From Candidatus Levybacteria bacterium RIFCSPLOWO2_01_FULL_42_15 (GTDB taxonomy: Bacteria; Patescibacteriota; Microgenomatia; Levybacterales; UBA12049), in the NCBI GenBank assembly GCA_001784055.1, contig MFOZ01000019.1:18593-82592 (forward strand): 64,000 bases of DNA. The letters run 5' to 3'. The position numbers and the translations under genes are program-made. Shown here in pieces: positions 5,362-25,566 of this stretch; the first letter of the stretch is position 1; the number at the start of each line of letters is the position of its first letter. The notes under the pieces are model-generated. The model did no database searches and was not told the origin of the DNA. It was given only the letters and a program-made list of their open reading frames with translations.

Positions 5362-6575
5362 TGTGATATGGGATTTAGAGTAACTTTTGGAACATAGAGA
5401 ATAGCGTTATCGTGATACTTTTTACCTCGCAATTCTTTAATTTTCTTAACAATTTCTTTATAAAAATTCCACGACATAATAATAATATGAAGATTTCCTT
5501 TTTCTTTTTGTAAGAGTTCGGGAGACTCTATTGAGATATTTCTTCCCGGAGTAACAAATCCCCATTTTAGAGGATTGTCATCGACGATGTATTCTAGATT
5601 GAGCTTAAAATAATTAAGCATAGTATTTCCTTTAGCAGATGCTCCATATCCAATAACTCTCTCTCCCCTTTTTTTAAAATCCGAAACGAGTTTACGAAGG
5701 TTATTTCGATTTTCTGCTACATTTTTGGCAAAGCGTTTGTAGGTTTGGATATCAAACAACCCACTTTCTTTCTCTTTTTGTATTAATGTAGTAACTTTGT
5801 CTGAATGAGAACTGATGCCCTTTTTTAGGAAGAAACGAATACTACCGCCATGAATAGGAGTTTGGATTAAATCAACAATGTGGAATCTCGAACGTGAAGC
5901 AAGCATAGCAAAAGAGTTGATCAGGAAATATGAAAGATGTTCGTGGTAGACCGTATCGAACTCATTAGATTTAATCATATTATTGCCGTAGGGAAACTCA
6001 AGTATCAAAATACCATCATCTTCCAAAGCCAAGAAACAAGCGAAAAGGAATCTATCAATTCGATCGACATGAGCAAATACATTGGTTCCCGTAATAAGAT
6101 TAAATTTCTTTCCAAGTTTTTTAGCTACTTTTTTGCTCCAGTAGTCAACAATTACAGAAATATTTTTCTTAATAGTAATTTCTCGTAAGTTTCCTGCCGG
6201 ATCAACTCCATACACATCGCACCCCAGTTCTTTAAAAAATTCCAATTGCGTTCCATCGTTGCAAGCAATGTCCAATACTCGTATTTTTTTCTTTTTCACT
6301 CGGGCTACAGCGTCTTTTGCCAACTCTTTACAATGATTTTGGAAGGTTTCTGTTGTTCCGCTGACATAGAGGTAGTTTTTAAACATTAATGCCGGTTTTA
6401 TTACGACACTAAGCATGCTATGGAAGCAGTTTTGGCATAATAATACTTCAAGAGGATATTCTTGCAATTTTTCCTCCTTTTTATGATAGCTATTCGCAAG
6501 TGGCTGCTTACCCAAATTGAGATATAAGAACAAGTTTTTTGCTCCGCAGCAGCGGCACCTTGTGGCTTTTTTCAT
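5358..6575 (-). CDS. NDP-sugar C-methyltransferase family protein (TylCIII-like: N-terminal Zn-ribbon + class I SAM MTase + C-methyltransferase C-terminal domain)
   Basis: N-terminal CxxC...CxxC zinc ribbon (CRCCGAKNL...CQNCFH). Central SAM-binding region (VLDIACNDGTQLEFF). About 400 aa, as in sugar C3/C5 C-methyltransferases. Confidence 0.65.
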   Translation of the reverse strand: MKKATRCRCCGAKNLFLYLNLGKQPLANSYHKKEEKLQEYPLEVLLCQNCFHSMLSVVIKPALMFKNYLYVSGTTETFQNHCKELAKDAVARVKKKKIRVLDIACNDGTQLEFFKELGCDVYGVDPAGNLREITIKKNISVIVDYWSKKVAKKLGKKFNLITGTNVFAHVDRIDRFLFACFLALEDDGILILEFPYGNNMIKSNEFDTVYHEHLSYFLINSFAMLASRSRFHIVDLIQTPIHGGSIRFFLKKGISSHSDKVTTLIQKEKESGLFDIQTYKRFAKNVAENRNNLRKLVSDFKKRGERVIGYGASAKGNTMLNYFKLNLEYIVDDNPLKWGFVTPGRNISIESPELLQKEKGNLHIIIMSWNFYKEIVKKIKELRGKKYHDNAILYVPKVTLNPISQ

Positions 6576-14623: not shown

Positions 14624-15742
14624 ATGAAAAAAATAAACTTGTTCGAGCCATATTGGACGAATGAAGACCTCGATGCTGTAACAGGTGTAATTAAAAGCGG
14701 TTGGTGGAAAGAAGGACCGATTTGTGAAAAGTTGGAAGAAGAATTTTGTGCGTATACGAAAACAAAGTATGCCGTATCAGTAAATAGTGCTACTGTGGGA
14801 CTGGACTTAATTTTTAAAGCATATGGTATTAAAAATGGAGAAGTAATTTTGCCCGCATTGACTTTTGTCGCTACAGGACTGATCCCCTTATATAACGATT
14901 GCAAGGTTATATTTGCTGATATAGATGAAGCAACACTGACAATTGACCCAAAAGATGTCGTGAAAAAAATAACTTCTAAAACAAAAGCAATTATCGTACA
15001 GCATCAATCCGGATACCCCGTAGATTTGGATAGTTTTGAGCAATTTAAAAAAAAAGGAATTTTAGTAATTGAAGATGCGGCTCACGGCGCCGGAACTTTT
15101 TATAAGGGAGAGCATGTTGGTACCAGAAATCCTTCTGTTTTTTCATTCAATGTTGTAAAAAATATTGCAGCGTGTGAGGGGGGGATGGTTACGACAGATA
15201 ATAAGGATATGGCAGAGAAAATGATGACCTTGCGATGGTTTGGTATAGATCAATTTGCCTGGAAAAAAGAAAAAAAGAAACATTTATGGGATTATTCCAT
15301 CTCCATGGTTGGATATAAATATCATTTCAATGATATTTTTGCCTCACTTGCTCGTGTACAATTAAAAAGGCTTAATAAAACAAATAAAAAAAGAAAAGAA
15401 TTAGCTCAGAGGTATAATGATAATTTTTTAAATAGATCCCTTCCTGTAAGAATTTTACTTATCAATTCCCCGGATATAATTTCTTCTCGTCATCAATATA
15501 TTATTCGGGTTGACGAGAAGCATAGGGATTCTTTAATTAATTGGTTGACAGACCATAAAATAATATCAGGAGTACATTATAAACCGATAAACCTATATCC
15601 GATTTTTGGTGGACATGGACATACTCCTGTTACTGATAGGGAATGGGGAAAAATGGTAACATTGCCTTTGCATCCGAAAATGACATTTGAAGATGTCGAT
15701 CATGTTTGTGAAGTAATAGCTCGATATTTTAAGCAAAATTAG
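14624..15742 (+). CDS. DegT/DnrJ/EryC1/StrS-family PLP-dependent nucleotide-sugar aminotransferase
   Basis: Typical start MKKINLFEPYW...D, then AVSVNSATVGLDL and the FSFNVVKNI Lys region. The ORF-track start at 14483 is an upstream extension; the Met at 14624 matches the family N-terminus. Confidence 0.85.
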   Translation: MKKINLFEPYWTNEDLDAVTGVIKSGWWKEGPICEKLEEEFCAYTKTKYAVSVNSATVGLDLIFKAYGIKNGEVILPALTFVATGLIPLYNDCKVIFADIDEATLTIDPKDVVKKITSKTKAIIVQHQSGYPVDLDSFEQFKKKGILVIEDAAHGAGTFYKGEHVGTRNPSVFSFNVVKNIAACEGGMVTTDNKDMAEKMMTLRWFGIDQFAWKKEKKKHLWDYSISMVGYKYHFNDIFASLARVQLKRLNKTNKKRKELAQRYNDNFLNRSLPVRILLINSPDIISSRHQYIIRVDEKHRDSLINWLTDHKIISGVHYKPINLYPIFGGHGHTPVTDREWGKMVTLPLHPKMTFEDVDHVCEVIARYFKQN

Positions 15743-15751
15743 TATTAGCTT

Positions 15752-17263
15752 GTGTTTTATTTTGTTGGATTTATTATTCCATTGATTAGTTATTTGTTTC
15801 AGATTTATCCCCGCTTGATAAATCGCTACTTTGGCGTGGATGTTTGGTCTCGGATGCTTGAGGCCGATTTTATTCGAAGAAATGGGCACCGAGTTCCTAT
15901 GCAAAAAATCAGCGATGGATTTATTTTGGAAGGATACTTTAATTATCCTCCTGTATTGCCTTGGCTCTTATCTTTTCTCTCAAAAAAAACGTTATTGGGC
16001 GTGCAGGGTTTTATCGCGCCGCTTTTTGATGTTATACAAAATATTTTAGTTTTTATTGCCATACTACAGTTAACTGGCAATATAGCTATCGCCGTACTGG
16101 GTCAAATTATCTATGCAACAATTCCTCTGGCTATCCTTGAGAATAGCTATTTAACTCCGCGATCGTTAGGTTATCTTACTTTTACTGTTGCATTTTACCC
16201 CTTAATTCTTTATTCCCTCGTACCCAATCCATTCTATCTTACCGTTGGGTTTATGTTTACCGTACTCTGTTTTTTTACGCACAGATTTGCCACTCAATCA
16301 CTTCTTTTTATGTGCGTATTTTTTTCTATCATAGATAGAAATCCTTTTTATCTCGCCGTTTTTTTTGGTGCTATGATTGTAGCAATTATCACAAGCCGTG
16401 GGTATTACCTGCGGGTTCTCGATGGACATATTGCAAATATTTACTTTTGGGTTTTAAATTATAAACTACGATTTGCCCATCAGGTACGAGGTATAGTAAA
16501 GAAAAGACAGAAGTGGGATTTTGTAAGCTTAGTATATTTTGTTTTAGGAAAATTTACCCCAGTGACACTTATTGGGACAAATCTTTGGATTGTAGTCCCG
16601 GTATTTTTCCTTCTGGAGAAGCTATTCGGTTTTGGTATCATTCCACAAGAGATTCTTATGGAACCGCTCTATTTTAAGATGTCTTTATGGGTACTATTTT
16701 GCTATGTTCTTGGAGCGCTTGTTTTATCCATTCCCTATCTTCAGCCTATTGGAGAAGGCCAGCGATATTTAGAAATGGCACTAGCTCCTACAGCAATAGT
16801 AGCAGCAGTGACATTTTCCCCCCTTTGGAGTACAGGCTATGCTGTTATTGCAACCGCTTGTTTTGTTCTCATACTTTGTACCAATATTGCTCTTACATTT
16901 ATCTCGCAATGGATGGGGATAATCAATGACAAATATAGAAGCCTTCATAAAGACATGCGAGAAGTATTTGCATTTATTAATACGCTCAAACCAGCTTCCC
17001 GAATTCTCTGTATTCCTCACCAAATAACAACAATGGTTTTGTACAATACAAAAGCAAGCGTATTGGTAGATATTCAAACGGGGACGTTACAACGAATACG
17101 TGATGTTTACCCAATATTAAGAAGCTCCGTACAAGATATCGCTAAAAAGTATAATCTTAATATGCTTATTCTCAAAAAATATTTTGCGTCCATGGAAGAA
17201 CTTAAACTTGATAAGAAATCTTTGATTTTTGAAACAGAAGAAACACAGATATTTAAACTTTAG
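15752..17263 (+). CDS. Polytopic membrane protein, putative GT-C-type glycosyltransferase
   Basis: About 12 predicted hydrophobic helices with extracytoplasmic loops. No recognisable transporter motifs. Sits inside the glycan cluster. Confidence 0.45.
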   Translation: MFYFVGFIIPLISYLFQIYPRLINRYFGVDVWSRMLEADFIRRNGHRVPMQKISDGFILEGYFNYPPVLPWLLSFLSKKTLLGVQGFIAPLFDVIQNILVFIAILQLTGNIAIAVLGQIIYATIPLAILENSYLTPRSLGYLTFTVAFYPLILYSLVPNPFYLTVGFMFTVLCFFTHRFATQSLLFMCVFFSIIDRNPFYLAVFFGAMIVAIITSRGYYLRVLDGHIANIYFWVLNYKLRFAHQVRGIVKKRQKWDFVSLVYFVLGKFTPVTLIGTNLWIVVPVFFLLEKLFGFGIIPQEILMEPLYFKMSLWVLFCYVLGALVLSIPYLQPIGEGQRYLEMALAPTAIVAAVTFSPLWSTGYAVIATACFVLILCTNIALTFISQWMGIINDKYRSLHKDMREVFAFINTLKPASRILCIPHQITTMVLYNTKASVLVDIQTGTLQRIRDVYPILRSSVQDIAKKYNLNMLILKKYFASMEELKLDKKSLIFETEETQIFKL

Positions 17264-17999: not shown

Positions 18000-18635
18000 T
18001 TAATTTTTTACGGCCATAGCAATAAGTTCATCAATAGGTTTATTATACCAGCTGCTTTGTTTATATTCCTTAATTTTGTTAGGGGAGAAGCGGAATTTTA
18101 TTAATTTTGCCGGAACCCCGCCATAAATCCCAAATTCTTGCGTAAGTCCCTTTACTAAGGAGTGTGTGCCAATCCCTCCACCATTTTTTATCGTACTGCC
18201 TCCTATTACGCTTACATTCTCGCCAATCCAAACATCTTTTTCTATTTTCGTATAGCCATAGTAAACTCTTTCTTTATTGCGCAGAGCTTTTTGCTTACTT
18301 TTTTTCAGGAGAATATAGAAGCTAAATGTTGAGAAACGATTATAATTGTGACCGTACGGCAAAACCTTAAAATCAGCACCGATAGATGTGAATTTATCAA
18401 TAGAAACATTGGAAATTTTAGCATCCCGTCCAAGAATTGAATATTCCTCGAGAATTACATTTGGTCCTATCCACGAATTACATCCCACTCTCGCATTTTT
18501 TTTTATTGTAACAGTGAATATGTCTATCAGGCATCCTCCGCGAATCATAGCTCCCGGATATCGTATCCAATAAACCGGCATTAATATCCACCCAAGTATA
18601 TTAGCAACTGTTTTTTCCATAAATCTAATTACCAT
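18000..18635 (-). CDS. Hexapeptide-repeat acetyltransferase (maltose/xenobiotic O-acetyltransferase-like)
   Basis: Hexapeptide repeats (VGCNSWIGPNVIL...; VWIGENVSVIGGSTI). 211 aa. Confidence 0.7.
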   Translation of the reverse strand: MVIRFMEKTVANILGWILMPVYWIRYPGAMIRGGCLIDIFTVTIKKNARVGCNSWIGPNVILEEYSILGRDAKISNVSIDKFTSIGADFKVLPYGHNYNRFSTFSFYILLKKSKQKALRNKERVYYGYTKIEKDVWIGENVSVIGGSTIKNGGGIGTHSLVKGLTQEFGIYGGVPAKLIKFRFSPNKIKEYKQSSWYNKPIDELIAMAVKN

Positions 18636-18846
18636 AAATTATAAGATAAAGAGCTTATGCTGGCAAGTATTTGTTTTTTTTGCAATTTGTATAATAATAG
18701 TGTATAAAAATGAAAGTAAAATTTTTATATCTAATTTATTTATGTTAAATTCTAATAAAAATGAAAACCCATTTGTATTAATAATGACTCTTTCCTATTG
18801 GGGATTAAGACCAAAAATTTTCCGCGGTTTTTAATGGAGAAAGATA

Positions 18847-21300
18847 ATGCTTAATATAAAACAAGGTATAAAAAATCATAAAATTATTATTGCAATGGCG
18901 CTCGTTCTCTTTTCTATCCCTTTCTTTTGGCTAAAGCCGGGAGAAATAGATATGGGAGGAGACGGGGGAAGTCTGTATTTTTATGATCCTATTAATTTCA
19001 TAAAGCACTCTGCCATATTCGAAAGTCTTCCATTTGGGACAGGAGTAATAGATACGCAATTTTATTACTTGCCTTTCGTAACTCTCATCACGCTTCTAAA
19101 AATTTTTTTGTCATCGCATCTTTTAAGCATTCTGCATAATAGTACGAAGTTGGTTGTTGGTTTTCTTTCCATATATGGCATTATGAAAGTGTTGCTTTCT
19201 TTCTCAAGGGAGAAAAATGCTCTTTTACGAGAAAAATTTAAAAAAATAGAAATCGTTAGCATTCTTACAGGTATTTTTTATATATTTTTACCGGTACTTA
19301 CGATGGATGATAGGTATGTTAATCCTCTGTCAATCCATGACCAGGTATTTTTAAATCCTCTTATATTTTATCTGATGTTAAAGTTTATTCTTACAGAAAA
19401 ATGGAAATATCTCGTAATTGCATTAGGGGTTAGTCTGATTCTTTCTCATAATTTTTATATTGCCTCTCCATCTCTTTATGCATTTTATCCTTTCGCGTTT
19501 TTATTTCTCGTTCTTTATGTCAGAATTATATTAAAAAGAACATTACCAATAAAAAGGATAATAGTAGGGGTAGTTTTCTTTATTTTTCTGCATTTTTTTC
19601 ATTTGTGGCCTGAGATAGCAAACTTATTTAATTCGGGGTCCAACATCAATGTTCGAATATTTAGCAAAGAAGCATACAAACAACAGACGCAGTATTTCTA
19701 CGGCGTTATTCATATTGCAAGTCTTGCAAAAAGCATACTTTTGCCTTCAATTTCAGGAGGCGCGTGGTTGATTTTTGTCTTCATTAGTCCCCTTATTATC
19801 TTATTAGGTTTTTTGAAGAACAGGTTTAGGTCAAGACTATTTTTGCTTACAGGATTATTTTTCTTAATTACGCTTTTTCTTATTTCGGCAAAAATTTCTT
19901 ACACGAGTATAAAACTGTACGAAATGTTTTTTTTATATATACCGGGATTTGGTATGTTTCGGAATTTTTATATCCAATGGATATATGTATTTGCATTTTT
20001 TTACACGCTTATGTTCGGACAAGCGCTTTATTTAATTTACTCCTCACTTGATAATAAAAAAGTTAATCTTATTTCTCTAATGTTGGCGATCTATCTTATT
20101 GGTAGCGCTTGGCTATTTATAAACGGTCATCAATTTAATCCTCCTTATGTTGATTCAGATAATGTGAGAAGACATCTCGTTATGGATCCCGAATATGAAA
20201 AGATGCTTGAGTTTATCCGAAATGTACCATATGATGGTAAATTACTTCAATTTCCCTTTAATGATTTTAATCATCAGGTTGTTCATGGAATAGGTGATGG
20301 TGCGTATATTGGCGCCACATCAATAGGACAACTTACGGGAGTTAAGGATTTTTCAGGTTATTGGCATACGGCTCCATATAGCCAGGCATTTCTTGAGTCA
20401 AGTAAAAAAAAGGATTACGAAACATTAATAAAAATCCTTGGGCTTTTAAATATCCGTTATATTTTTTATAATTCTGATCCAAGAGTTTACGATACTACTT
20501 TCACCGGCCGACCGTTTACTTACGTAAGGCAATTTCTTCCTTCGACTCAAAAGGATTATAAGGAGTTTATAAAACCATTGGTAGGGGAGAAACTGTTTGA
20601 AGCTGGTTCTTATAGTCTCTATTTAACAAAAAAAGAATCATATATTCCTCAGATGTATATTCCTAAAGTATCAATGGCTTACAAACACAATCCAAAGTAC
20701 GATAGGTATTATGAAGGAGCATCTTCCTTTATTTTAAATAATAAACAAGATGAGAAAAGAGTGGCTTATATAGAAAAGAACGATTGTAGCGGTAAGCCTT
20801 TCCTGCAAACCTTTTGTGAAAGAAATGTTTTCTATGAGGGAGCGATGCCAAAAATATATTTTAAAAAAATTAATCCAACAAAATATAAAGTTACAATTTC
20901 AGATATACAAAATCCATTCCTTTTAGTTTTTTCAGATACTTTTAATCGCAATTGGAAACTTTTTATTGGCAAAAACAATCCCTTAGAAGAATCCAACGCA
21001 AAAATATATTTCAATGGTGAGATTAGAGAGGAAAAGTCTGAGAATATTTTTATTGATAAAAAAACTTTTGAAACAATCGGATTGAAAAATATACCTGAAG
21101 AACAACATTTTTCCGTGAACGGTTTTGCAAATGCTTGGTATGTACATCCAAAAGATATTGATATGCAACGAGAGGCGACCTTTATAGTAGAGATGATTGA
21201 TCAGCGGTCATTTTATTCTGCGCTTCTGTTATCCTTGATTGCACTTTGTGGGTTTTTTATTTGGGGAATTGTCCTTCTTCTAAGAAAACTTTTAATTTAG
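18847..21300 (+). CDS. Large polytopic membrane protein (817 aa) with C-terminal extracytoplasmic domain and terminal TM anchor; putative GT-C glycosyltransferase
   Basis: More than 12 N-terminal hydrophobic helices, a roughly 350-aa hydrophilic domain, and a final TM helix (ALLLSLIALCGFFIWGIVLLL). This architecture resembles arabinofuranosyl/mannosyl GT-C enzymes. Confidence 0.45.
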   Translation: MLNIKQGIKNHKIIIAMALVLFSIPFFWLKPGEIDMGGDGGSLYFYDPINFIKHSAIFESLPFGTGVIDTQFYYLPFVTLITLLKIFLSSHLLSILHNSTKLVVGFLSIYGIMKVLLSFSREKNALLREKFKKIEIVSILTGIFYIFLPVLTMDDRYVNPLSIHDQVFLNPLIFYLMLKFILTEKWKYLVIALGVSLILSHNFYIASPSLYAFYPFAFLFLVLYVRIILKRTLPIKRIIVGVVFFIFLHFFHLWPEIANLFNSGSNINVRIFSKEAYKQQTQYFYGVIHIASLAKSILLPSISGGAWLIFVFISPLIILLGFLKNRFRSRLFLLTGLFFLITLFLISAKISYTSIKLYEMFFLYIPGFGMFRNFYIQWIYVFAFFYTLMFGQALYLIYSSLDNKKVNLISLMLAIYLIGSAWLFINGHQFNPPYVDSDNVRRHLVMDPEYEKMLEFIRNVPYDGKLLQFPFNDFNHQVVHGIGDGAYIGATSIGQLTGVKDFSGYWHTAPYSQAFLESSKKKDYETLIKILGLLNIRYIFYNSDPRVYDTTFTGRPFTYVRQFLPSTQKDYKEFIKPLVGEKLFEAGSYSLYLTKKESYIPQMYIPKVSMAYKHNPKYDRYYEGASSFILNNKQDEKRVAYIEKNDCSGKPFLQTFCERNVFYEGAMPKIYFKKINPTKYKVTISDIQNPFLLVFSDTFNRNWKLFIGKNNPLEESNAKIYFNGEIREEKSENIFIDKKTFETIGLKNIPEEQHFSVNGFANAWYVHPKDIDMQREATFIVEMIDQRSFYSALLLSLIALCGFFIWGIVLLLRKLLI

Positions 21301-22006: not shown

Positions 22007-22933
22007 ATGATAAGTGTTGTTATTTCAGTTTACAACGAGGCAGAAAGCTTACATATCTTTTATGAACATCTTATACAAATAATAAAAATCTTAGATGAGC
22101 CATATGAAATTATCTTTATTGATGATGGATCAACCGATGGATCGTTTGAACTACTAAAGCAAATAGCGCAGAAGGATCGCCATGTGAGATTTTTTTCATT
22201 TAGAAAAAATCAAGGGAAGGCAGAAGCTTTAACGTTGGGTTTTCAAAAAGCAAGGGGTGACTATATTGTCACTCTTGATGCGGATTTGCAGGATAAGCCT
22301 TCCGAAATTCCAAGGCTTTTAGAAAAGGTGGAAGAGGGATGGGATGTGGTGTGCGGGTGGAGGAAAAATCGTAGGGACTCTTTTTCTAAAGTTATTTCTT
22401 CAAAAATTTTTAATAAGATCGCCTCGTTTTTCTGGCAATTACAGCTTCATGATTATAACTGCGGCTTAAAAGCATACGCCAAAGATGCGGCAAAAAGTTT
22501 GCATCTATATGGGGGGATGCATCGATTCATTCCGCTTCTTGCATTCCAGAATGGTTTTCGTGTATGCGAAATTCCTGTAGTTCACCAAAAGAGAAGATAT
22601 GGGAAGTCGAAGTATGGATTTTCAAAAATTTTCAAAGATATTCCAGACATATTTACCATGCTTTTTTTAGTACGCTATAGTAGTAGACCGCTTCATTTTT
22701 TTGGAATGATTGGAGGAATTCTGCTCTTTATCGGATTTTCTATTTTAGGTTATCTTAGTATAATTTGGTTTCAGGGTGAGTCAATAGGAAGAAGACCCCT
22801 CTTGTTTTTGGGCATGCTTCTTGTCTTAGGCGGGTTTCAAGTTTTTTTTACAGGGTTTTTAGCAGATCTTATGATTAGCTTATTTAATAAAGGTAAACAG
22901 GAATTTCCCTTAAAATACTCAAACGGTGAGTAG
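22007..22933 (+). CDS. Polyprenyl-phosphate glycosyltransferase (GtrB/ArnC/Dpm1-like GT2 with two C-terminal TM helices)
   Basis: Motifs ISVVISVYNE, DDGSTDGS, LDADLQD. C-terminal pair of TM helices, characteristic of the Und-P-sugar synthase subfamily. Confidence 0.8.
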   Translation: MISVVISVYNEAESLHIFYEHLIQIIKILDEPYEIIFIDDGSTDGSFELLKQIAQKDRHVRFFSFRKNQGKAEALTLGFQKARGDYIVTLDADLQDKPSEIPRLLEKVEEGWDVVCGWRKNRRDSFSKVISSKIFNKIASFFWQLQLHDYNCGLKAYAKDAAKSLHLYGGMHRFIPLLAFQNGFRVCEIPVVHQKRRYGKSKYGFSKIFKDIPDIFTMLFLVRYSSRPLHFFGMIGGILLFIGFSILGYLSIIWFQGESIGRRPLLFLGMLLVLGGFQVFFTGFLADLMISLFNKGKQEFPLKYSNGE

Positions 22934-23518
22934 AAAAATAATCCATGGAAAGGGAAGCCTTATGGTTTTAATTTCAGCGTTTTGTTTCTTGATAAACCGT
23001 TGAAAAGAAAAAATAGTCCAGTGATTGATGTGTTCCGGATCGTTCCCAAAGCTCCTCACGTTTTTCCCTCTAAGAAAATTAGCCAGCATAAAAAACGGTT
23101 CGTTGGGAACAGACAGAAGAATATATTGCTTGGATACTCGAAGCACTTCTTTTAGTGCTTGATGGGGGTTTTTGAGATGCTCTAGGACTTCCGTACAAAT
23201 GACTAAATCAAACGAGGAACTTTGGTAAGGGAGATCATAAATACTAGCATGTTGAAGAGTAAGATTAGGAAATGTCTTTTTTCCAATCGAAAGAGCATCT
23301 TTTGAATAGTCAATTCCCTCAAATGTGTTTCCGATCTTTTTTTCTGCAAATTTTGCAAGCGTGAATCCTTCTCCGCATCCCACGTCCAATAGAGATGAAA
23401 CATCTAGTGGCTGTGCAAGATTAAGCATTGTTTGATAAAAATTTTCTATCAAGAAATGCTGGACTGGGTTTTGACTCATGTGTTTAAGATAATTGTTGGT
23501 AAGTTGAGTTTTGCTCAT
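22919..23518 (-). CDS. Class I SAM-dependent methyltransferase
   Basis: Motif I LLDVGCGEGF. Motif post-I DLVICTEVLEHLKNP. 199 aa. Confidence 0.75.
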   Translation of the reverse strand: MSKTQLTNNYLKHMSQNPVQHFLIENFYQTMLNLAQPLDVSSLLDVGCGEGFTLAKFAEKKIGNTFEGIDYSKDALSIGKKTFPNLTLQHASIYDLPYQSSSFDLVICTEVLEHLKNPHQALKEVLRVSKQYILLSVPNEPFFMLANFLRGKNVRSFGNDPEHINHWTIFSFQRFIKKQNAEIKTIRLPFPWIIFLLTV

Positions 23519-23558
23519 AGATTGGGTATGATCAGGATGTTTTCTATTATATACGAAA

Positions 23559-23781: not shown

Positions 23782-24330
23782 ATGAAAATAGGAATTGATG
23801 TAAGCCAGCTGGTATATTCTAACACTGGAGTAGCAAACTACTTAGAGAACTTGGTTCAATGTTTGCTTAAGGTTGATAAGGAGAATGAGTACGTATTCTT
23901 CTTTTCCTCTTTAAGAAGAAAATTTCTAATTTCTAATTTCAAATTTTTAAATAAATCCCAATTTTTAAATCCCAAAATTAAGATAAATACATTTAAAATA
24001 CCGCCTGTTTTATTAGATTTCCTTTGGAATAGGTTGCATATTGTACCAATAGAGTGGTTTATTGGAGATGTTGATGTATTTATTTCCTCGGATTGGACGC
24101 AGCCACCTACTAAAAAAGCCAAAAAAGCGACGATTCTGTACGATCTTATTGTGCATAAATATCCCAATGAAACGGACAAAAAAATTGTAGATACGCAAAG
24201 AAGAAGACTTACGTGGGTGAAAAAAGAATGCGATGTGGTATTTTGTATATCGGAATCAACAAAAAAGGATGCGATGGAGATTCTGGGAATTGAGAAGAGA
24301 AAGCTAAAGGTTATTTATCCCGGGATTTAA
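23782..24330 (+). CDS. Truncated GT4-family glycosyltransferase paralog (N-terminal Rossmann domain only)
   Basis: MKIGIDVSQLVYSNTGVANY... aligns with the N-domain of the downstream full-length GT4 (MIIGIDGNEANVQRRVGISEY...). It ends at KVIYPGI, the linker VVTYPGV in the full-length copy. No C-domain follows in any frame. Confidence 0.5.
   Translation: MKIGIDVSQLVYSNTGVANYLENLVQCLLKVDKENEYVFFFSSLRRKFLISNFKFLNKSQFLNPKIKINTFKIPPVLLDFLWNRLHIVPIEWFIGDVDVFISSDWTQPPTKKAKKATILYDLIVHKYPNETDKKIVDTQRRRLTWVKKECDVVFCISESTKKDAMEILGIEKRKLKVIYPGI
23921..23948. repeat. Heptanucleotide tandem repeat (AATTTCT)2(AATTTCA)(AATTTTT) inside the truncated GT4 CDS
   Basis: Direct reading of sequence 23921-23948, followed by a second AAATCCCA duplication. 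Confidence 0.8.
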
Positions 24331-24366
24331 TAGACCATTGTTTAATTAATACATTGTTAAATTACT

Positions 24367-24373
24367 GGGGGGG
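24367..24373. repeat. Homopolymeric G7 tract in the ribosome-binding region of the full-length GT4
   Basis: ctGGGGGGGtaataaatATG, 9-15 nt upstream of the start at 24382. It is highly unusual in roughly 30% GC DNA. Confidence 0.8.
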
Positions 24374-24381
24374 TAATAAAT

Positions 24382-25566
24382 ATGATAATAGGTATTGATG
24401 GGAATGAGGCGAACGTACAGAGACGAGTAGGTATTTCGGAGTACGGCTTCGAACTTCTTAAGAATTTCAAATTTCAAATTTCAAATTTCAAATTTCAAAT
24501 TTACCTTAAAAAGCCTCCCTTGCCTCATATGCCTAAGGAACGAGACGGATGGCGATATAGAATTGTTCGGCCAGAAAAGTTATGGACGCAGATAGGTCTA
24601 CCGATCGATTTGTTCTTTCATAAGCCTCGTCCGGATGTGTTTTTTAGCCCCACGCATTACGCTCCTCGTTTTTCTCCTGTTAACTGCGCAATTTCAATCA
24701 TGGACGTATCGTATTTGCGTTTTCCTTCTCTGTTTAATGCGTCGGATTTGTATCAGCTCAAGAACTGGACCGCTTATTCGGTAAAAAAAGCAGTGAAAAT
24801 CTTTACCATAAGTAAATCAAGTAAAAATGATATAATAAAAGCGTATGGTGTGTCTGAAGAAAAAGTAGTGGTGACATACCCGGGAGTAAAATTCAAAAAT
24901 ATGGTTCGACAAACTCACCATCCTGAGCAAAGTCGAAGGACAATGCAAAATTCAAAAGTACTAGAGAAATACGGAGTTGATAGGAATTATGTTCTTTTTG
25001 TTGGGACGCTGCAACCAAGGAAGAACATTGAACGGCTCATCGAAGCCTTCAGCCTTGTTTGTCATCCTGAACTTGTTTCAGGATCTCAATCAAAACGAGA
25101 TTCTGACCTTCGTCAGAATGACATCCAACTTATAATCGTTGGCAAGAAAGGATGGCTGTACGAGGACATCCTAGAGGCGCCCAAAAAATTTGGAGTAGAA
25201 AATAGCGTCAAGTTTCTGGAGTTTGTTCCAGAAGAGGATCTTTCGAGCCTCTATCAAAATGCTCTTTTTTTTATTCTTCCCAGTTTATACGAAGGGTTTG
25301 GGTTGCCGGTGCTTGAGGCAATGAGCTACGGGTGTCCTGTAATAACCAGTAATGTGAGTAGTCTTCCTGAAGTAGGGGGAGATGCGGTTCTGTACGTAGA
25401 TCCGTTAAGTACAAGTGATATCTGTGAAAAAATGAGGATGATATTTTTGGATGAAAAGCTTCGCGCCGAACTTCAAAAAAAGGGATACGAGCAGGTTAAA
25501 AAGTTCAACTGGGAAAAAACAGCAAAACAGACACTTGATATTTTAGAAAATCTCGCGCAAAAATAA
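24382..25566 (+). CDS. GT4-family (glycosyl transferase group 1) glycosyltransferase
   Basis: N-domain MIIGIDGNE... C-domain motifs LFVGTLQPRKNIERLIEAF, FILPSLYEGFGLPVLEAMSYGCPVITSNVSSLPEV (E-x7-E). Confidence 0.85.
   Translation: MIIGIDGNEANVQRRVGISEYGFELLKNFKFQISNFKFQIYLKKPPLPHMPKERDGWRYRIVRPEKLWTQIGLPIDLFFHKPRPDVFFSPTHYAPRFSPVNCAISIMDVSYLRFPSLFNASDLYQLKNWTAYSVKKAVKIFTISKSSKNDIIKAYGVSEEKVVVTYPGVKFKNMVRQTHHPEQSRRTMQNSKVLEKYGVDRNYVLFVGTLQPRKNIERLIEAFSLVCHPELVSGSQSKRDSDLRQNDIQLIIVGKKGWLYEDILEAPKKFGVENSVKFLEFVPEEDLSSLYQNALFFILPSLYEGFGLPVLEAMSYGCPVITSNVSSLPEVGGDAVLYVDPLSTSDICEKMRMIFLDEKLRAELQKKGYEQVKKFNWEKTAKQTLDILENLAQK
24463..24504. repeat. Heptanucleotide tandem repeat (AATTTCA)x5 plus AATTTAC inside the GT4 CDS
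   Basis: Direct reading. Encodes NFKFQISNFKFQIY. The unit length is not a multiple of 3. Confidence 0.9.

Follow-up and report, generated by a model that had tools for sequence, protein, structure and literature searches.

A length-variable poly-G tract at the ribosome-binding position of a family-4 glycosyltransferase gene in a Levybacteria glycan cluster

A G7 tract at positions 24367-24373 of the window, by which we mean the whole stretch of 64,000 nucleotides that was analysed, occupies the ribosome-binding position of a family-4 glycosyltransferase (GT4) gene and is a genuine hotspot of slippage. The tract lies on the forward strand, and its length in other assemblies from the same population is G7, G8 or G9. 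The best reading, to which we assign a probability of roughly 0.55, is that it is a slippage-prone Shine-Dalgarno (SD)-like element whose observed lengths are tolerated; we infer the tolerance from modelled pairing.

The GT4 protein (OGH42870.1) is that of Candidatus Levybacteria bacterium RIFCSPLOWO2_01_FULL (Microgenomates, CPR), from the Rifle aquifer. Its gene (24382..25566, + strand, 394 aa, Pfam Glycos_transf_1, E=1.7e-35) sits in a long co-directional glycan-biosynthesis cluster that contains GT2 and GT4 transferases, a DegT aminotransferase, hexapeptide acetyltransferases, methyltransferases, a PMT_2-family protein and large membrane proteins. Many genes of the window overlap or abut.

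In the locus sequence, ctGGGGGGGtaataaatATG, the G7 tract is followed by an 8-nt spacer, TAATAAAT (24374..24381, + strand), and by the ATG at 24382; the window letters from 24360 to 24384 are aattactGGGGGGGtaataaatATG. The initial annotation had placed the tract at the SD position, and this was borne out, with the G7 ending 8 nt before the ATG and the spacing the same in all alleles. The GT4 start codon at 24382 is secure because the N-terminus, MIIGIDGNEA, is kept as M[IL]IGIDGNEA at the same position in about 60 orthologues. A coding role for the tract was rejected, as there is an in-frame stop at 24358-24360 and the conserved N-terminus begins at 24382, and in the G7 allele no ATG, GTG or TTG was found from the in-frame stop at 24358 to the ATG. 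A TTG start that is in frame in the G9 allele only was also rejected, since it would add 10 non-conserved residues, and a G-quadruplex was ruled out for a single G run. The GT4 coding sequence is intact in every tract allele.

To sample the population, contigs were collected through exact-protein look-ups with GT4, the upstream ORF, a 73-aa ORF and the downstream acetyltransferase in ENA, JGI, Logan and NCBI assemblies, and each record was counted once. Exact-pattern scans of the JGI metagenome_contigs, with both flanks and a variable gap and then with the downstream flank alone, gave no match. The tract is spanned by 18 distinct contigs of the Rifle-aquifer Levybacteria population, at 98.5% identity or more; these are consensus contigs without reads, and some may be re-assemblies of the same reads, so that they may amount to fewer than 18 independent observations. 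The suggested check for length heterogeneity (G6, G7 or G8) was positive in these contigs. Six carry G7 (the window, L001, L085, L089, L092 and L113), three carry G8 (L002, L083 and L114) and nine carry G9 (L084, L086, L087, L088, L090, L091, L093, L094 and L117), with identical spacer flanks in all 18; alleles shorter than G7 were not seen among them. Over 11.7 kb, L002 and the window differ by no indel other than the tract. At least two alleles occur within each of three multi-contig ENA assembly series (G7, G9, G7, G7 in ANAN16-1; G7, G9, G8, G9, G7, G8, G9 in ERZ27254xxx; G9, G8, G9 in ERZ4903xxx), which shows that the assembler is not the cause. As in simple-sequence-repeat (SSR) phase-variable loci, the repeat is long enough to slip (a G/C run of about 7 or more), and its length differs among near-identical genomes with the same flanks.

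The distribution of the alleles over haplotypes indicates that the length has changed more than once. Two backgrounds of the upstream ORF (182 aa and 178 aa) differ by dozens of changes at 23893-24021, and G7, G8 and G9 were each found on both, so the changes in tract length recurred. All four combinations of the SNP at 24105 (A/G) with G7 and G9 exist, the two sites being 262 nt apart. The region 24022-24845 holds only one common SNP and five singletons, so that the tract stands out as far more polymorphic than the sequence around it. G9 is carried by five of the six contigs with 23666C/23669T, and this partial linkage speaks against random error and in favour of heritable alleles with occasional changes. 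In contigs that are otherwise more than 99.9% identical, dense substitutions and indels are confined to short patches at 20968-21042, 22099-22375, 23893-24021 and 24846-24966, and scaffold N-gaps (L001, L113) and many contig ends lie at or near these four patches. Such patches have the look of recombination that has left the glycan locus mosaic, or of alleles that coexist in it.

Control homopolymers were taken from window positions 12000-32900 (about 21 kb), with a threshold of at least 7 nt for A or T and at least 6 nt for G or C. None of the 65 coding tracts was variable in 427 contig observations. The invariant controls include a coding G7 at 15178-15184, in frame in a DegT/aminotransferase gene of the same glycan cluster, which was G7 in 9/9 contigs and gave no sign of frameshift phase variation among these nine, as well as G6 runs at 22511 and 26634 and a C6 run at 16818; these G7, G6 and C6 tracts were constant in 9-13 contigs each. 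The span has two intergenic homopolymers only, and both vary: the poly-G tract at 24367 and a T run at 18674-18681, which is T8 in four contigs and T7 in two from the same population. The T run lies between divergent genes at 18000-18635 (-) and 18847-21300 (+), with a TATAAT at about 18691 just downstream. Products of slippage thus seem to be retained where no reading frame rules them out, and the variation of the other intergenic tract tempers any claim of special mutability for the poly-G tract.

The initial annotation had regarded the tract as a second, independent variation mechanism on the same gene, and support for a first one was lacking. The repeat concerned, a perfect heptanucleotide repeat (AATTTCA) x5.7 at 24463..24502 (+ strand) within the GT4 coding sequence, whose period is not divisible by 3, is present in five full copies in each contig that spans it; L090 and L091 end inside it. 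An imperfect repeat, AATTTCT x4.3, was observed at 23921-23950, in the corresponding part of the upstream N-domain ORF, and orthologues have a similar F-x-F/Q-I-S-N motif of variable length at the heptamer site.

A 7-G run had also been called highly improbable in an AT-rich genome. The sequence and its location in the ribosome-binding region are as described, but AT-rich was an overstatement for a window with 37.6% G+C, which is only moderate, and the improbability did not hold up: two G7 runs were observed in 64 kb, compared with 2.1 expected under a first-order Markov model and 0.8 with independent bases. Rather than the G7 itself, it is the placement that is unusual. By arithmetic from the run rates, about 0.02 G runs of at least 7 nt are expected per window within 20 nt 5′ of its 57 ORF starts. 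Related genomes contain 18 G/C runs of at least 7 nt in 907 kb; 17 of the 18 are coding, and none was retained as lying at a ribosome-binding position. The single apparently intergenic run (L037, position 11155) was dropped because it precedes a pyruvate:ferredoxin oxidoreductase ORF whose Pfam match begins at profile position 46, and it is probably within a longer or interrupted gene.

The gene order around the tract is shared with relatives, and the spacer is not. The upstream ORF (23782..24330, + strand, 182 aa, Pfam Glyco_transf_4, E=2.7e-7) codes for the N-terminal domain of a GT4 and nothing more, terminating in ..VIYPGI. Its stop codon, TAA at 24328-24330, is followed by TAG and by the rest of a 51-nt intercistronic spacer (24331..24381, + strand) that ends at the GT4 start. 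Of 27 Levybacteria-like loci, 20 have an ORF of this kind, ending ..YPG(I/V) and mostly of 170-205 aa, directly 5′ of the full-length GT4 (they include L003, L005, L007, L018, L021, L028 and L043, just 5′ of position 6001). Such a stand-alone half-glycosyltransferase kept across species is unusual. The gap to GT4 is often 1-5 nt or a 4-nt overlap, and the orthologous start codon is mostly 1-5 nt past the upstream stop. In 15 of the 20 loci, the two genes either are at most 9 nt apart or overlap by 4 nt, and compared with these short gaps the long spacer means that GT4 would need its own ribosome entry site. The other five loci have gaps of 33-145 nt without G runs, and on sequence comparison these long-spacer orthologues, lacking a comparable G run, would count against an SD role.

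No G run of 6 nt or more was found upstream of GT4 in about 65 orthologous loci from 65 other species. This comparison of ribosome-binding regions had been proposed with the provision that the same G7 in all relatives would argue against a variable element, and that outcome was not seen. When the 51-nt spacer was searched for elsewhere in the window and in 80 orthologous loci, only short matches at chance level came up, and the spacer is therefore not a repeated or mobile element. The nearest other GT4 protein has only 67% identity, which leaves no intermediate relatives to compare. Judged from these alignments, the 51-nt spacer with its G tract is lineage-specific. Within the GT4 gene, an in-frame segment at 25060-25122 encodes CHPELVSGSQSKRDSDLRQND and contains the palindromes CATCCTGAA..TTCAGGATC and ATTCTGAC..GTCAGAAT; the peptide is identical in two orthologues (P0002 and P0004, 67% identical overall) and absent from others, and the segment is single-copy in the window. 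Its sequence suggests an inserted palindromic element carried in frame.

Pairing with the ribosome was modelled using the canonical anti-SD tail, ACCUCCUUU, which may differ from the organism's own 16S 3′ end. The region upstream of GT4 gave -11.1 kcal/mol, the best value among the 57 ORF starts (the next being -7.3), and 0.17% of random 22-mers from the window reached -11 kcal/mol. The tract is complementary to the canonical 16S 3′ tail, and its spacing falls within the approximately 5-10 nt of an SD site, at 8 nt from the tract end and 6 nt from the last paired base. General use of such sites in the genome and conservation among orthologues were not found. SD-like pairing of -5 kcal/mol or stronger occurs at 9 of the 57 starts (15.8%) and in 15.9% of random 22-mers, a comparison in which some starts may be mis-set and would dilute an SD signal. 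This genome region seems to make minimal use of SD sites. Since SD motifs are not enriched at the window starts, the organism may hardly use SD pairing, and the SD role is not secure. In the literature, reduced detection of the anti-SD motif is reported for a Parcubacteria subgroup only and not for Microgenomates (PMC9297842).

The modelled SD:anti-SD duplex strengthens from -6.0 kcal/mol for G4 to -9.7 for G5, and then reaches -11.1 for G7, -11.3 for G8 and -11.5 for G9, so that going from G7 to G9 changes it by at most 0.4 kcal/mol with the spacer fixed. The tract grows at its 5′ side, so that its paired part stays equally far from the AUG at every length. Given the near-flat duplex energy and the fixed spacing, G7, G8 and G9 should be nearly equivalent for initiation. 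The earlier proposal that length changes modulate translation initiation is thus unsupported as stated, the modelled pairing being saturated from G7 to G9.

An RNA hairpin was predicted at 24345..24399 (+ strand), with -10.1 kcal/mol, z = -2.3 and 4 of 200 shuffles as stable. In the predicted structure, the outer stems pair 24345-24359 with 24383-24399 and take in the U and G of the AUG, while the apical stem pairs ATTACT (24361-24366) with GGTAAT (24372-24377) and leaves the remaining G's in the loop. All three alleles are predicted to fold alike, the sole difference being a loop that lengthens from 5 to 7 nt. At gathering thresholds the window had no Rfam match, and 24200-24600 had none at E up to 1.

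A consensus scan for promoters and terminators found none in the spacer (24330-24382). The closest site resembling a promoter lies before the 73-aa ORF, at 23504-23532, a position that suggests an operon with GT4 as its third gene. The tract also differs from promoter-spacer homopolymers of the porA, fetA or tp0126 type in that no -35/-10 pair straddles it. The best manual fit (TTGTTA, 17 nt, TAAATA) was rejected because it is without the conserved final T and the transcription start would fall 3′ of the ATG. A weak candidate extended -10, TGtTAAATT at 24355..24363 (+ strand), was read by eye from the sequence; if it were active, transcription would start inside the G tract, for which the case is weak.

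According to the reading that we prefer, a poly-G simple-sequence repeat would slip in a lineage-specific 51-nt spacer of a cell-surface glycan operon. The tract would act as a strong SD-like site in which GGGGG pairs with CCUCC via one G:U and recruits ribosomes to the GT4 start, and it would replace the stop-start coupling used by most orthologues. With the 3′ end of the tract anchored 8 nt from the AUG and pairing predicted to saturate at about G5-G7, the observed lengths would lie on one plateau. The length variation would most likely be tolerated, near-neutral or at most a graded modulation, and would not constitute an ON/OFF switch. The variability itself may simply mark any unconstrained tract, as the T8 run at 18674 varies too.

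Genuine phase or graded variation, in which the tract length alters GT4 expression and adaptively diversifies the surface glycan with respect to phages or host attachment, is a possibility that we consider tentative and lean against. Such an effect could arise through the transcription start or discriminator if TGtTAAATT is a promoter, through mRNA stability or processing, or through the loop size of a hairpin that displays the SD. The recurrent polymorphism from G7 to G9 falls in the range where known contingency loci switch, the predicted hairpin holds the tract in its apical loop with the AUG partly in a stem (z = -2.3), and the allele counts are bimodal (6 G7, 3 G8, 9 G9), but haplotype structure, and samples that may have been assembled more than once, confound the bimodality. 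The tract is also directly 5′ of a glycosyltransferase in a glycan cluster, the gene class that is most often phase-variable in Campylobacter (PMC8355987), and length-dependent mRNA levels have been documented for upstream G(n) tracts of Moraxella catarrhalis uspA1 and Treponema pallidum tpr/tprL. Against this, no promoter straddles the tract and no consensus promoter was found in the spacer; SD pairing, spacing and predicted fold are near-identical from G7 to G9; and no OFF-like allele, with fewer than five G's, was seen among the 18 contigs. Furthermore, the other intergenic homopolymer varies too, and contingency behaviour was seen in no other homopolymer of the 21 kb, with neither the coding G7 nor the heptamer repeat varying.

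The comparison with known systems bears on the same possibility. One likeness is that of uspA1 in Moraxella catarrhalis, where a poly-G tract lies 5′ of the start in non-coding DNA and natural lengths differ by single G's (PMC7302503). In strain 195ME, uspA1 mRNA is low at G8-10 and high at G11-12, with a difference of about 21-fold between G10 and G12 (PMC7302503). The effect of length on mRNA is demonstrated there and is hypothetical for the Levybacteria tract, which is much closer to the AUG, at the SD position. In Treponema pallidum, which is likewise an uncultivable bacterium, poly-G tracts of 7-11 nt lie 5′ of surface-related genes, namely tpr (E, G, J, L) and tp0126, and vary within and between strains (PMC7864442). 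Those tracts are inside mapped promoters and their length changes promoter activity, whereas the Levybacteria tract is without flanking promoter elements. By analogy, a 5′-UTR length effect of the uspA1 type on GT4 is possible, and since the length-specific effects at uspA1 and tpr go beyond simple thermodynamic models, there is room for true phase or graded variation here.

The intergenic and intragenic poly-G/C contingency tracts of Campylobacter jejuni, which lie in loci for capsule, LOS and flagellar glycosylation, resemble the present one as G runs of 7-9 nt at a surface-glycan transferase gene whose length is polymorphic among very close relatives, with slipped-strand mispairing as the presumed cause (PMC8355987). 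They are mostly within ORFs and cause frameshifts, whereas the Levybacteria tract is intercistronic and never disrupts a gene. Also unlike Campylobacter, no genome-wide set of tracts is evident for Levybacteria, the other G7 of the window being stable. Poly-G tracts are reportedly linked to glycosyltransferase genes in Neisseria as well (pgtA/lgt); these are said to be coding and to switch by frameshift, while the Levybacteria tract is non-coding. Glycosyltransferases are the gene class most often phase-variable in Neisseria. When compared to a canonical SD site, the tract shares a purine run complementary to the 16S CCUCC at 6-8 nt from the AUG, and differs in being pure G (with a G:U wobble), not conserved, and located in a region without SD enrichment.

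A purely neutral microsatellite, that is, a chance by-product of the lineage-specific spacer without a role in ribosome binding or transcription, is in our judgement unlikely. It would agree with G7 runs at the background rate, with SD motifs that are unenriched in this genome region, with the absence of the tract from all orthologues examined, and with the variation of both intergenic homopolymers when all 65 coding ones are constant. The exact placement 8 nt from the AUG speaks against it, given a background of 0.17% for the anti-SD complementarity and about 0.02 such coincidences expected per window. Slippage goes both ways, yet no allele below G7 was seen, and because the spacer broke a widespread stop-start coupling, some replacement initiation signal is expected. 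That the lengths are sequencing or assembly homopolymer errors is highly improbable. Some platforms do make errors in poly-G runs, and what is compared here are consensus contigs, not reads. However, assembly k-mers are much longer than a tract of 7-9 nt, samples handled by one assembler within one series differ in length, the alleles show partial linkage to SNPs close by (G9 in 5/6 23666C/23669T contigs), and the control G7, G6 and C6 tracts are invariant in 9-13 contigs each.

Hypermutable poly-G tracts by glycosyltransferase genes are a classic means of surface variation in host-associated pathogens, and surface variation in the ultra-small, uncultivated CPR bacteria appears to have been discussed so far mainly in terms of diversity-generating retroelements. 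Among the ranked full-text literature matches, no paper joined phase variation or simple sequence repeats with CPR/Patescibacteria, and a literature search on the mismatch-repair status of CPR gave nothing usable. The locus is therefore a length-variable poly-G tract, similar to known contingency tracts, in a lineage where such tracts are not described in the searched literature. By its sequence, it shares the structural features of a poly-G contingency locus (length, and polymorphism among near-identical genomes); the functional ones, an effect of its position on expression and a phenotype, are hypothetical here.

For the biology of these organisms, the idea that CPR/Patescibacteria may use SSR phase variation, with the poly-G tract as a tunable ribosome-binding or 5′-UTR element that sets the GT4 level in a genome with little SD use, is speculative and rather doubtful at present. 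If true, slippage among G7, G8 and G9 would create subpopulations of differing expression in the aquifer, for example for phage evasion or host attachment. If the variation is neutral, the locus would still calibrate homopolymer slippage in CPR bacteria. The locus likewise offers a way to see whether a strong but rare SD-like element is of consequence where a lineage makes little use of SD sites, and in a well-sampled aquifer time series the G7, G8 and G9 alleles provide a concrete marker, countable in reads, with which to ask whether CPR bacteria carry contingency loci.
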